A stretch of DNA of 44,173 bases from a bacterium (GTDB lineage: Bacteria > Pseudomonadota > Gammaproteobacteria > Burkholderiales > SG8-41): positions 1 to 44,173 of the forward strand of contig DAIDBG010000057.1 of assembly GCA_027310225.1 (NCBI GenBank), read 5' to 3'. Under the pieces are notes generated by a model. That model ran no database searches, was not told the origin of the DNA, and was given only the letters and a program-made list of their open reading frames with translations. This document shows, piece after piece, positions 12,838-26,433 of the stretch (positions within the stretch are counted from its first letter, which is position 1; every line of letters starts with the position of its first letter). Position numbers and translations under genes: made by a program.

Positions 12838-12914
12838 GGGTTCAAGGTTCAGGGTTCAAAGTTCAGGGTTCAAAGTTCAAACCAGAACCCGGAACTTGGA
12901 ACCCGGAACCTGAG
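12838..12914. repeat. Heptad-periodic imperfect palindrome (GTTCARR / GAACYYG units) in the ptsH-ptsI gap
   Basis: The left arm is GGGTTCAAGGTTCAGGGTTCAAAGTTCAGGGTTCAAAGTTC and the right arm is GAACCCGGAACTTGGAACCCGGAACCTG. 12845-12871 pairs with 12885-12911, with A.G mismatches at 12865/12891, 12858/12898 and 12851/12905 (every 7th position). Confidence 0.85.
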
Positions 12915-21775: not shown

Positions 21776-23266
21776 CTAAGGCGCAAGCCTGCGCCTGAGA
21801 ATCTCGCTCACCTGCCGGGGATCGGCCTTGCCCATGGTCATCTTCATCACCTGGCCGACGAGCGAGTTGAACGCCTTTTCTTTCCCGCTCCTGTAGTCCG
21901 CCACCTGCGAAGGATTTGCAGCAATAACATCGCTGCAAATCCTTTCCAGCTCGCCACTATCGGAAATTTGCTTCAATCCGCGCCTCTCGATGATCGCATC
22001 GGCATCCCCACCGCCCTCGCCTTTCCACATCGCCGAAAAAACCTCTTTCGCGGTTCGATTATTCAGCGTTTGATCCAGTTGGCGCGCGAGCAGTTTGGCG
22101 AGTTGCAGCGGTGAAACTGGAGCTTGCTCGATCTCAAGCGCGGATTCGTTTAGCGAGGCCGAAAGGGCACCCAGGATCCAGTTTGAGGTCAGCTTCGCGA
22201 CGCCGGACAGCACGGGCTTCTGACCCTCCATCCCGGTCTGGACACGGGTCATGTCCATGGTGAGTTTGGTTGCCTGCTCAAAATACGTTGCGAATCCTAT
22301 CGTCGTCGTCAGCACTTGTGCGTCGTATTCCGGGAGCTGGTAATCCGTAACAAAGCGGCTTCGCATTGCATCCGGCAGTTCCGGCATTTCCATCTTTATT
22401 TTCCCGACCCACGATTCGGCAACTTCCAGCGGCAAGAGGTCCGGATCGGGAAAATAGCGGTAGTCGTGCGCCTCTTCCTTGGTGCGCATCGAGCGCGTCT
22501 CGTCCCTGTTCGCGTCGTAGAGCCGCGTCTCCTGCAGGATGCTGCCGCCGTCCTCGAGGATCTCGATCTGGCGCCTCGCCTCGAACTCGATCGCGCGCTC
22601 GAGGAAGCGAAAGGAGTTGAGGTTCTTGATCTCGCAGCGCGTGCCGAGCCTGTCCGACCCGGCGGGCCGCACCGAGACGTTGGCGTCGCAGCGAAACGAG
22701 CCCTCCTGCATGTTGCCGTCGCAGATGTCGATCCAGCGCACCAGCGCGTGCAGCGCCCTGGCGTACGCCACGGCTTCCCGCGCCGAGCGCAGGTCGGGCT
22801 CGGAGACGATCTCGAGCAGCGGCGTGCTGGCGCGGTTCAGGTCTATGCCGGTGAAATCATGGAAGCTCTCGTGCAGCGACTTGCCCGCGTCTTCTTCGAG
22901 ATGCGCGCGGGTGAGCCGGATTGTCTTTCCTTCGCCTTCCACATAAATGCCGATCGTACCGCCCTGGACGATCGGCATTTCGTACTGGCTGATCTGGTAG
23001 CCCTTGGGGAGATCGGGATAGAAATAGTTCTTGCGGGCAAAGATCGAGCGGCGGTTGATTCTCGCCCCGACCGCGAGCCCGAAGCGCACCGCCTTGGCCA
23101 CCGCCTCGCGGTTCGCGACCGGCAGCACGCCGGGCAGCGCGATGTCCACCGCGCAGGCCTGGGTGTTGGGCGCGGCGCCGAACGCCGTCGCCGATCCCGA
23201 GAACATCTTCGAGCGCGTGTTGAGCTGCGCGTGCGCCTCGAGCCCGATGACGGTTTCCCACTTCAT
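21776..23266 (-). CDS. gatB: Asp-tRNA(Asn)/Glu-tRNA(Gln) amidotransferase subunit B
   Basis: [24 protein letters not shown]...[15 protein letters not shown]...C-terminal YqeY-like tail; 496 aa. Confidence 0.97.
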
Positions 23267-23279
23267 CGCTGCCGCTCCC

Positions 23280-23379
23280 GTGAGGAGTAAGGAGTGAGGA
23301 GTAAGGAGGCAAACCCTCCAGCGCTCACTGCCAAGTTCTTCTCCTCACACCTCACACCTCACGCCTCACGCCTCACGCG
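23280..23379. repeat. Heptad-periodic palindrome (GTGAGGA/GTAAGGA units versus CCTCAC units) in the gatA-gatB gap
   Basis: 23280-23306 pairs with 23350-23376. There are 6 bp per heptad, and the 7th position is A.G or A.A (23286/23370, 23293/23363, 23300/23356). The gatA stop (23373-23375) lies inside the outermost unit. Confidence 0.85.
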
Positions 23380-24833
23380 TCGCATCCCGGGGGGATGCGA
23401 CGATGCCAGTCGGTCGCGAGCTGGTACTGGTGCGCGAGGCCGAGCATGCGCGCCTCCGCGAAATAATTGCCGACGATCTGCAGCCCGACCGGCAGGCCCG
23501 CCGCGTCGAAGCCGCAGGGTATGGACATGCCGGGCAGGCCGGCCAGATTCGCCGGGATGGTGTAAATGTCGTTGAGATACATCCGCACCGGGTCGTCCAT
23601 CTTCTCGCCGAGCCTGAACGCGGTGGTGGGGCTGGTCGGCCCTGCGATCACGTCGCAGCGCTTGAAGGCTTCCGCGAAGTCGCGCGCGATCAGCCGCCGC
23701 ACCCGCTGCGCCTGGATATAGTAGGCATCGTAGTAGCCGTGCGAGAGCACGTAGGTGCCGATGAGGATACGCCGCTTCACTTCCCACCCGAAACCCTGCG
23801 AGCGCGTCTTCCTGTACAGGTCGGGCAGATCCGCATACTCCGGCGCCCGGAAGCCGTAGCGCACGCCGTCGTAGCGCGCGAGGTTGCTCGAGGCCTCCGC
23901 CGGCGCCAGCACGTAATACACCGGCACCGACAGCCTCATGTTGGGCAGGCTCACGTCCACCGTCTCGCAGCCGAGTTTCCCGAACTCCGCCACCGCCGCT
24001 TCCACCGCCTTCATCACGGCGGGCGCGGCGCCTTCGGCGAAGAACTCCCTCGGCAGGCCGATCTTCAGCCCCCTCGCCTGCCTGCCGATCTCGCGCGCGT
24101 AGTCCTCGCGGCCGCGCTCGAGCGAGGTGGAGTCGCGTGCGTCAAAACCTGCCATCACGTTCATGAGCAGCGCCAGGTCCTCCGCGGTGCGCGCCATCGG
24201 GCCGCCCTGGTCGAGGCTGGAAGCGAATGCGATCATGCCGTAGCGCGACACCACGCCGTAGGTGGGCTTCAGCCCGCAGATGCCGGAGAGCGCCGCCGGC
24301 TGCCGGATCGAGCCGCCAGTATCGGTGCCAATCGCGCCCGGCGCGAGCCGCGCCGCCACGGCCGCGGCCGACCCCCCGGAGCTGCCGCCGGGCACGGTGG
24401 CGACGTCCCATGGATTGCGGACCGGCCCGTAGTAGGAGGTTTCGCTCGACGAGCCCATGGCGAACTCGTCCATGTTGGTCTTGCCGAGGTTGACCGCCCC
24501 CGCCGCGTTGAGGCGCTCGACCACATGGGCGTCGTAGGGAGAGACGAAGTTGGACAGCATCTTCGAGCCGCAAGTGGTGAGCCAGCCCCGGGAACAGAAG
24601 ATGTCCTTCTGCGCGATCGGGATGCCGGTGAGCGCCTGCCCGCGCCCGGTAGCGCGCAGCCGGTCGGCAGCCTCCGCCTGCCCCAGGCTCGCCTCTTCGT
24701 CGAGCGTGATGAAGCAGTTGTATTTCTGGTTTAATGCCTTGATCCGGCTGAGGAAATGCCTGGTGAGCTCAACGCTGGAGAGCTTGCGCGCCGCCAGTCG
24801 GGCAGATAGCTCCTTGATGGTGGCCTTGTGCAT
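23373..24833 (-). CDS. gatA: Asp-tRNA(Asn)/Glu-tRNA(Gln) amidotransferase subunit A
   Basis: Amidase signature [13 protein letters not shown] and [11 protein letters not shown]...TTCGSKML; 486 aa, between gatC and gatB. Confidence 0.97.
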
Positions 24834-24907
24834 TAGGGAATAGGGAAGAGGGAAGAGGGACGGGAATACCGGTTCTCCACCCCGCTCCCCTGTTCCCTAT
24901 TCCCTTA
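24834..24907. repeat. Heptad-periodic palindrome (TAGGGAA/GAGGGAA units) filling the entire gatC-gatA gap
   Basis: 24835-24847 pairs perfectly (13 bp) with 24893-24905, and imperfect pairing continues to a CCGG tip at 24869-24872. The element is bounded by the gatA ATG (24831-24833) and the gatC TAA (24905-24907). Confidence 0.9.
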
Positions 24908-25194: not shown

Positions 25195-26331
<1,137 letters not shown>

Positions 26332-26338
26332 TGGCGGG

Positions 26339-26422
26339 GTTCCGGGCTCAAGGTTCCAAGTTCAAAATCCCGCGTTCCAAGTTTCAGGTTTTGACGTTGA
26401 ACCCTGAACCTTGAACCCGGAA
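26339..26422. repeat. Palindromic element of the GGTTCAA/TTGAACC heptad type in the mreB-mreC gap
   Basis: GTTCCGGGCTCAAGGTTCCAAGTTCAA (26339-26365) pairs with TTGAACCCTGAACCTTGAACCCGGAAC (26396-26422), about 22 of 27 positions. The central 30 nt contain further GTTCCAAGTTTCAGG units. Confidence 0.85.
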
Positions 26423-26433
26423 CGTTGAAGCAG

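Follow-up and report, generated by a model that had tools for sequence, protein, structure and literature searches.

A heptamer-armed hairpin in the gatC–gatA spacer of a Burkholderiales bacterium: a member of a dispersed repeat class and its likely bearing on the translation of gatA

Introduction

In cyanobacteria and Xanthomonas, heptamer repeats have for decades been seen to lie beside stop codons, but neither an origin nor a role has become accepted for them. This article concerns a hairpin with arms built of such 7-mers, which occupies the spacer between gatC and gatA in a stretch of 44,173 nucleotides (the window; contig DAIDBG010000057.1 of assembly GCA_027310225.1) from a bacterium of the Burkholderiales lineage SG8-41. 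GatA is a subunit of the GatCAB amidotransferase, which is needed by many bacteria for Gln- or Asn-tRNA. An earlier note on this DNA had proposed that the hairpin is a device by which translation termination on gatC is coupled to initiation on gatA across a closed helix, or by which the GatC:GatA ratio is set. The reading favoured here, which is held to be rather probable, is a different one, in that the gat hairpin belongs, as a copy without a gene, to a dispersed class of heptamer elements, and gatA is most likely translated by a coupling of the unfolding type.

In sequence, the closest described repeats are GGGAATC of Xanthomonas, GGGGAYT of Nostoc and the cyanobacterial STRR heptamers (PMC4692102). 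These are ~90% intergenic, as is the class to which the gat hairpin belongs, and the Xanthomonas unit is nearly identical to the gat unit, GGGAATA. As in the class described here, moreover, length and sequence differ between close relatives, the G-rich strand is capable of forming a G-quadruplex (G4) and some paired copies can form inverted repeats (PMC4692102). In that work the heptamers are treated as simple-sequence repeat or G4 motifs, and not as hairpin elements or as replacements of a ribosome-binding site (PMC4692102). Unlike these repeats, the class described here is defined by a complete hairpin, in which the G-rich arm faces a complementary C-rich one. One design is shared, furthermore, by many unrelated 7-mers within a single genome, and some copies enclose a gene of PF05635, the '23S rRNA intervening-sequence protein' (IVP).

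A second likeness is to the intervening sequences (IVSs) of 23S rRNA that carry an S23p/IVP open reading frame (ORF), known from Coxiella burnetii and Leptospira. Their stem is a long terminal inverted repeat, of 28 bp in Coxiella, with tandem heptamers of variable copy number in the stem region, and in the full-length form the loop contains the PF05635 ORF (PMC4990558). The three PF05635 genes of the source genome have exactly this layout. The gat element, unlike an IVS, lies in an mRNA spacer rather than in 23S helix 25 or 45, and its 71 nt contain no ORF; placed between two protein-coding genes, it was rejected as a 23S rRNA IVS in its own right. The REP, BIME and REPIN elements with their RAYT transposases are likewise short, dispersed, intergenic and imperfect palindromes that often separate convergent or co-directional genes, each family having one conserved palindrome that flanks a Y1 transposase gene (PMC3116915), whereas the class here consists of tandem 7-mers of many unrelated sequences. 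An identity with REP/REPIN–RAYT was rejected on this ground, together with the lack of heptamer arrays near either of the genome's two weak Y1_Tnp matches (contigs C226 and C230).

With regard to translation, the relevant precedent is coupling by RNA unfolding, which is established for other gene pairs (phage f1 genes VII/IX, MS2 coat–lysis and rpmI–rplT; PMC12548453). In these, as at gat, the downstream start lies in a hairpin of which the other strand is on the path of the upstream ribosome, and the downstream gene is without a usable Shine-Dalgarno (SD) sequence. Unlike the published cases, the masking strand at gat amounts to no more than the final base of the stop codon plus the 12 nt that follow, so that it is left to the footprint of the terminating ribosome to unmask the start. 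The 71 nt between stop and start are, moreover, far past the range of efficient scanning-type coupling, and the masking helix is a repeat element rather than a gene-specific structure. Stable mRNA structure exactly downstream of an intra-operon stop codon is also the hallmark of ribosome termination structures, which are reported to insulate, i.e. to lessen downstream translation (bioRxiv 10.1101/2020.02.10.941153); the gat helix additionally holds the downstream start, and its effect could go either way.

The hairpin at the gatC–gatA junction

On the minus strand the junction reads UAA-GGGAAUAGGGAA...UUCCCUAUUCCCU-A-AUG (in full, UAA-GGGAAUAGGGAACAGGGGAGCGGGGUGGAGAACCGGUAUUCCCGUCCCUCUUCCCUCUUCCCUAUUCCCU-A-AUG), with a spacer of 71 nt. 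The description given in the earlier note holds in every particular of the sequence. Positions 24893-24905 pair with 24835-24847 over 13 bp with no mismatch, after which the stem continues imperfectly, as 7+7+3 bp over three 1x1 mismatches, to a CCGG tip within the loop CCGGUA. The helix, of ~30 bp in total, begins with a base pair formed by the final A of the gatC UAA and reaches to one base before the gatA AUG. With 10 nt of flank included, further pairing is possible between U and G of this AUG and U and A of the gatC stop.

The fold is much more stable than its composition would give. Over 91 nt, flanks included, the minimum free energy (MFE) is -49.2 kcal/mol, against -28.3 +/- 3.5 kcal/mol for 200 dinucleotide shuffles (z = -6.0; 0/200 as stable), and the 71-nt element alone folds at -46.6 kcal/mol. 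The sense strand is only 1.7 kcal/mol more stable than the antisense strand. The arms are periodic, their lag-7 identity of 0.80 being the best among lags 3-11, and the 12-mer GGGAATAGGGAA occurs three times in the window at <=1 mismatch, every one of them within the hairpin, where 0.06 occurrences are expected. No curated RNA family in Rfam 15 matches the hairpin at gathering score, sub-threshold matches being confined to generic microRNA precursors (20-34 bits versus cut-offs of 60-100).

An inverted repeat in a fragmented metagenome-assembled genome (MAG), in this case one of 386 contigs and 88% completeness, might in principle be a fold-back chimera made in assembly. Such an artefact is scarcely credible here. 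A Logan contig from a separate assembly (SRR5161795) agrees at every base of the 200 nt that span the hairpin, the sequence being seen in two samples, and congeners assembled independently, as well as a Rhodocyclaceae MAG, have analogous elements at this junction. The gat hairpin is confirmed as a real sequence feature; its absence from the true sequence was one of the outcomes that, according to the earlier note, would have undone its proposal.

A further peculiarity of the junction is its reading frame. From the gatC stop codon through the spacer to a downstream TAA (24833-24907, minus strand) there are exactly 72 nt, which are open in the gatC frame, and this second TAA overlaps the start of gatA (UAAUG). 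Were a ribosome to read through the first UAA, it would unwind the entire helix and finish in a classical 1-nt overlap. The layout may be a coincidence, with a chance of roughly 0.15.

A dispersed class of heptamer hairpins

The gat hairpin is one of a dispersed, genome-wide class with heptamer arms, and is not specific to gatCAB. The census was made with a vectorised, G.U-aware scan for ungapped stems, an exact-seed inverted-repeat scan having missed the G.U-rich members, and the class was delimited by a stem score >= 16 and an arm lag-7 identity >= 0.6. Among 588 stems in the genome with a score >= 16, this lag-7 identity is reached by 119, as compared with 9 at lag 8 and 11 at lag 6. The same preference for seven is seen in the Tandem Repeats Finder (TRF) arrays of the genome at score >= 50, which number 112 for period 7, 90 for period 14 and 5 for period 8. 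Arrays of the GGGAAT type occur at at least eight other loci, two of them as hairpins. About 90% of the class (107/119) is intergenic, in a genome ~88% covered by candidate ORFs, and 73 members lie between co-directional genes.

The features that make the gat junction appear contrived, namely a stop and a start at the two ends of the helix and a pyrimidine run before the AUG, are properties of the class, because the census reveals them throughout the genome. In 47 of the 73 co-directional hairpins the stem begins within +/-12 nt of the upstream stop, with a median stop-to-stem gap of 4 nt for the class and a gap of -1 nt at gat. Bridging from stop to start, with the stem ending <=9 nt from the next start, is found in 20/73, compared with 6/122 for other stems. 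The arms are asymmetric, the purine fraction being 0.60 in the 5' arm versus 0.39 in the 3' arm and the GC skew +0.36 versus -0.37, an asymmetry absent from non-heptamer stems. In other words, across all 119 hairpins the G- and purine-rich arm comes first and the C- and pyrimidine-rich arm second, whichever strand is read. Stop triplets are found in 71/119 of the 5' arms and 49/119 of the 3' arms, and in all three frames in 26 and 14, respectively.

Neither the G.U-aware stem scores nor the RNAfold energies reveal a bias in stability towards the sense strand across the class. By RNAfold, 29 members are more stable in sense and 38 in antisense, with 10 versus 9 among the bridging cases; therefore, nothing points to selection for the RNA fold.

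Three further members lie within the window (Table 1). One is in the gatA-gatB spacer, where the TGA stop of gatA sits within the first unit (GCGTGAG); it relies on many G.U pairs, and its sense strand is the more stable by 18 kcal/mol. Another separates mreB from mreC, two plus-strand genes divergent from the minus-strand gatC, gatA and gatB according to the ORF list of the window, and ends 1 nt short of a TTG and 10 nt short of the mreC ATG.

Table 1. Features of the gat locus and related heptamer elements; positions are those of the window unless another contig of the source genome (C282, C328 or C70) is named
Feature	Position	Strand	Basis or remarks
Fourth class element, GGTTCAR x6 / GAACCYG	12845..12911	(+)	
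gatB coding sequence (CDS)	21776..23266	(-)	GGGAG 9 nt upstream of start, outside gatA-gatB hairpin
Second class element, gatA-gatB spacer, (GYGTGAG)5 ... (CTYACTC)4	23279..23370	(-)	stem score 21; fold -58.6 kcal/mol sense vs -40.4 antisense
gatA CDS, 486 aa	23373..24833	(-)	ORF list; homologues 78-87% identity in genus, aligning from residue 1
gatA ATG start	24833-24831	(-)	
Heptamer-armed hairpin element, 71 nt, entire gatC-gatA spacer	24835..24905	(-)	fold; ungapped stem score 21.5; arm lag-7 identity 0.80
3' arm, pyrimidine-rich, 7-mers TTCCCGT/(CCCTC)/TTCCCTC/TTCCCTA/TTCCCTA; ends 1 nt before gatA AUG, in the usual place of an SD	24835..24866	(-)	sequence; unpaired probability of -20..-1 = 0.11
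Terminal loop CCGGUA, 6 nt	24867..24872	(-)	MFE structure
5' arm, purine-/G-rich, 7-mers AAGGGAA/TAGGGAA/CAGGGGA/GCGGGGT; first base = last A of gatC stop	24873..24905	(-)	sequence, structure
gatC stop UAA	24907-24905	(-)	
gatC CDS, 95 aa	24905..25192	(-)	ORF list; PF02686 GatC call in Logan contig; stop position identical across relatives
Only promoter-like site on gat strand, TTGGCG-16-TATGAT, upstream of gatC	25238..25265	(-)	
Third class element, mreB-mreC spacer, GGTTCCA / GAACCYT units	26339..26423	(+)	fold -36.5 kcal/mol mreBC sense vs -45.3 antisense
PF05635 copy, GGTTCCG arms	C282:1300-1780		
PF05635 copy, GAAGGAT arms	C328:1090-1640		
PF05635 remnant, TGCAGAA arms	C70:2210-2460		

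The junction in related genomes

Within the genus the positions of the gatC stop and the gatA start are fixed, and the spacer between them is hypervariable, at 21-126 nt in 21 congeners. In six of these it is 21-33 nt long and has no hairpin; in the others it is 57-126 nt long and contains GGGRCTA, GTGAGGN, CATCACC or decayed units, unrelated to GGGAATA. The gatA-gatB junction varies in a similar way, from a 4-nt overlap up to 205 nt. Under strict criteria a class element is present at 4/21 gatC-gatA and 4/18 gatA-gatB junctions, as compared with ~7% of co-directional junctions genome-wide, which is a modest enrichment. Outside the family, a GTGAGCG/CGCTCAC heptamer hairpin fills the gatC-gatA spacer of the Rhodocyclaceae MAG (CAYYXS010000040.1, about 640-700). 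Such elements appear, from these comparisons, to turn over fast between species.

The proposal that the helix evolved as a dedicated regulator of gatCAB, setting the gatC stop beside the gatA start for reinitiation across a closed helix or fixing the GatC:GatA ratio, has several points for it. The GatCAB subunits are required 1:1:1, the basal pair of the helix has the stop at one end and the start at the other, the AUG being able to extend the pairing through its U and G, and the occlusion of gatA is the largest among 29 relatives. Against this, the same design recurs with other 7-mers at about 119 sites in the genome and has no sense-strand bias, the enrichment at the junction is only modest, and, since the spacer is hypervariable and the hairpin absent or unrelated in congeners, it is not a conserved gat regulator. 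A dedicated device is therefore quite improbable, and this part of the earlier proposal is not supported. What does stand is the more general suggestion that gatA depends on gatC, which is plausible in view of the occlusion energetics, the lack of an internal promoter and the SD-less junctions of relatives (see below).

Cargo-bearing copies and the origin of the hairpin

Three PF05635 matches are present in the source genome, two of them full genes and one a remnant, each between inverted heptamer arms, outside rRNA and directly after the stop codon of a host gene. The families to which these arms belong (GGTTCCG, GAAGGAT and TGCAGAA) are also present in the genome as gene-less hairpins, and the gene-less GAAGGAT hairpins have inner ends (GGATGACC... 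and ...GGTCAYCC) in common with the PF05635 copy on C328. Across the genus, PF05635 genes are found in 22/26 congeners, at 1-12 each, versus 1/14 control genomes, and heptamer inverted arms are present at most of 30 sampled PF05635 loci. Because three heptamer families have copies that enclose PF05635, the gene-less hairpins look like miniature derivatives of PF05635 cassettes. All four of the congeners examined that are free of PF05635 have short gat spacers (28-33 nt) without a hairpin.

A different origin would be growth in situ, in which the arms arose by slippage of a local 7-mer, seeded perhaps by an ancestral stop-plus-SD sequence TAAGGGAAT, with any function exerted through a G4. In this regard, in 58 metagenome contigs gatC ends ...GAR-TAAGGGAA with the gatA ATG 3-17 nt on, and therefore the first heptamer of the gat hairpin coincides with a native junction motif; these contigs, among them many Pseudomonas-like and some betaproteobacterial ones in which GGGAA(T/A)AG... 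comes after the gatC stop, were, however, picked by a pattern that already contained TAAGGGAA. The stretch GGGAAUAGGGAACAGGGGAGCGGGG of the 5' arm, beginning at the gatC stop, fits by regular expression the G4 motif (G>=3 N1-7)x3 G>=3. The published GGGAATC repeats also lie near or overlap stop codons with a length that varies between species (PMC4692102), and target-site duplications were not found. Slippage alone, however, gives no reverse-complement arm, and it would not account for GGGAAT arrays at eight or more unrelated loci or for the inner ends that cargo-bearing and gene-less copies of other heptamer families have in common; the complementary arm, at -46.6 kcal/mol, should also out-compete a G4. 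Growth in situ is accordingly an improbable account of the hairpin.

The start of gatA and its transcript

The start of gatA appears to be correctly placed. GatA alignments of 29 relatives begin at the called ATG or <=2 codons from it, and the ORF list contains no alternative in-frame ATG, GTG or TTG near it. The 15 nt that precede it, CUUCCCUAUUCCCUA, are pyrimidines at 12 of 15 positions and contain no GGAG, GAGG or AGGA, in agreement with the earlier description of a pyrimidine-rich leader that lacks a ribosome-binding site. A perfect AAGGAG does occur inside gatA (24810-24815, minus strand; codons 7-8, the K-E of a conserved IKEL), and is probably mere coding sequence because no in-frame start follows it.

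Across the clade, gatA is without an SD. Among members of the genus an SD is rare in the last 15 nt before gatA, and in Beta- and Gammaproteobacteria the gatC-gatA junction is often a TAATG or ATGA overlap, or a 2-17-nt gap without an SD. From these clade-wide overlapping or short SD-less junctions, therefore, the coupling of gatA to gatC is probably ancestral, the absence of an SD not being caused by the helix. More broadly, GGAG, GAGG or AGGA is found at -18..-4 in only ~32% of the 335 unambiguous ATG starts in the genome as called with a crude gene caller, which suggests low SD usage in this lineage.

The gat strand has no promoter-like site between gatC and gatA. An intrinsic terminator at the hairpin was rejected, there being no terminator call and no U-tract, the tail reading AAUGCAC. 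Since the sole promoter-like site is upstream of gatC and no U-tract follows the hairpin, the gatC transcript is the one from which gatA is read.

How gatA may be translated

The cost of opening the region -15..+12 of the gatA start is computed at 22.5 kcal/mol, the highest among the 29 relatives. A ribosome modelled at the gatC stop so as to mask 9 or 12 downstream nt brings the cost down to 7.8 or 5.8 kcal/mol, respectively. In this model, the helix adds ~22 kcal/mol of occlusion to an SD-less start, and a ribosome at the gatC stop removes most of it. As far as computation goes, in other words, the gatA start is sequestered in a structure that a ribosome on the gatC stop would disrupt. Dependence of gatA translation on gatC is plausible on these grounds, and RNA-unfolding coupling is the likeliest mechanism at the gatC-gatA junction.

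The sequence of events may be envisaged as follows. A gene-less element would have replaced the entire gatC-gatA spacer, the ribosome-binding region of gatA included, and, by taking over the whole spacer, would have left an already SD-less gatA start buried at the base of a ~30-bp helix. A ribosome arriving or terminating at the gatC UAA would then take up 9-12 nt from the start of the 5' arm into its mRNA channel, upon which the outer stem would melt, leaving the pyrimidine-rich 3' arm and the AUG single-stranded and free for initiation.

Several observations weigh against this combined account of origin and translation. On the translational side, a ribosome at the gatC stop is predicted to melt only part of the stem, and in an E. 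coli library stable structure right after a stop codon lowered downstream expression (bioRxiv 10.1101/2020.02.10.941153), and therefore the helix might insulate rather than couple. With regard to origin, flanking direct repeats of the 119 elements number 9, versus 4-13 in offset controls. Target-site duplication was in consequence rejected as a class feature, TAA flanking the GGGAAT...ATTCCC palindrome at gat and TAATG occurring in relatives with no class-wide excess; element mobility is accordingly deduced only from dispersal and from presence or absence, and the mode of spread remains inferential. In addition, no GGGAATA-armed PF05635 cassette was found in the 88%-complete genome or at the 30 sampled loci of the genus. 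Heptamer-array density, compared in 40-100-kb samples between four PF05635-rich and four PF05635-free congeners, is 11-38 versus 3-21 per 100 kb, with the ranges overlapping, and is a trend only.

Taken to its conclusion, the E. coli finding would make the helix a translation insulator, a ribosome termination structure that blocks reinitiation after the gatC stop and lowers GatA relative to GatC; in the two-gene library the more stable the structure after the upstream stop, the less the downstream gene was expressed (bioRxiv 10.1101/2020.02.10.941153). At gat, however, the downstream gene has neither an SD nor a promoter of its own, such that pure insulation would starve the cell of a subunit needed by gatC and gatB, and 20 bridging elements are tolerated genome-wide. 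Insulation is thus a very improbable role.

A more serious possibility, though still rather unlikely, is that the ~30-bp helix is an RNase III processing site, the cutting of which separates the gatC and gatA messages and leaves gatA with a short pyrimidine-rich leader, making coupling unneeded. The stems of the related ORF-bearing 23S IVSs (28 bp, with heptamer repeats) are cut mid-stem by this enzyme (PMC4990558). The source genome encodes rnc, the gat helix is longer than two turns, and the class sits in many operons, essential ones too, where none of the 26 hairpin-abutted starts has an SD. On the other hand, a mid-stem cut could leave the flank of the AUG still held in the outer 13-bp duplex, and RNase III may or may not accept a helix with three 1x1 mismatches; processing is, besides, compatible with unfolding-type coupling rather than exclusive of it.

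A bolder generalisation, of similarly low probability to growth in situ, is that the heptamer hairpins act as a 'stop-helix-start' joint, in which a terminating ribosome is passed to an SD-less start at the other side of the helix base, leaving 70-170 nt unscanned. If this is true, bacteria would have a counterpart of ribosome shunting, which would explain both the 20 elements that replace a ribosome-binding site, that of gatA included, and the occurrence of GGAG, GAGG or AGGA at 0/26 hairpin-abutted starts versus 32% of the 335 unambiguous starts.

Significance

The heptamer-hairpin class is poorly described but widespread. The window presents heptamer repeats as complete hairpins that are able to occupy a whole intercistronic region of gatCAB, ribosome-binding site included, and in the source genome sister heptamer families carry the gene of the 'intervening-sequence protein'. 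Many uncultured lineages carry such hairpins, which bear on annotation there and on models of operons. If expression of gatA survives by way of coupling or of RNase III, the elements would constitute natural experiments on SD-independent initiation beside very stable helices, for which the 20 bridging junctions of the source genome are test cases. The most interesting point is how genes that lack an SD and lie directly behind such helices get translated.

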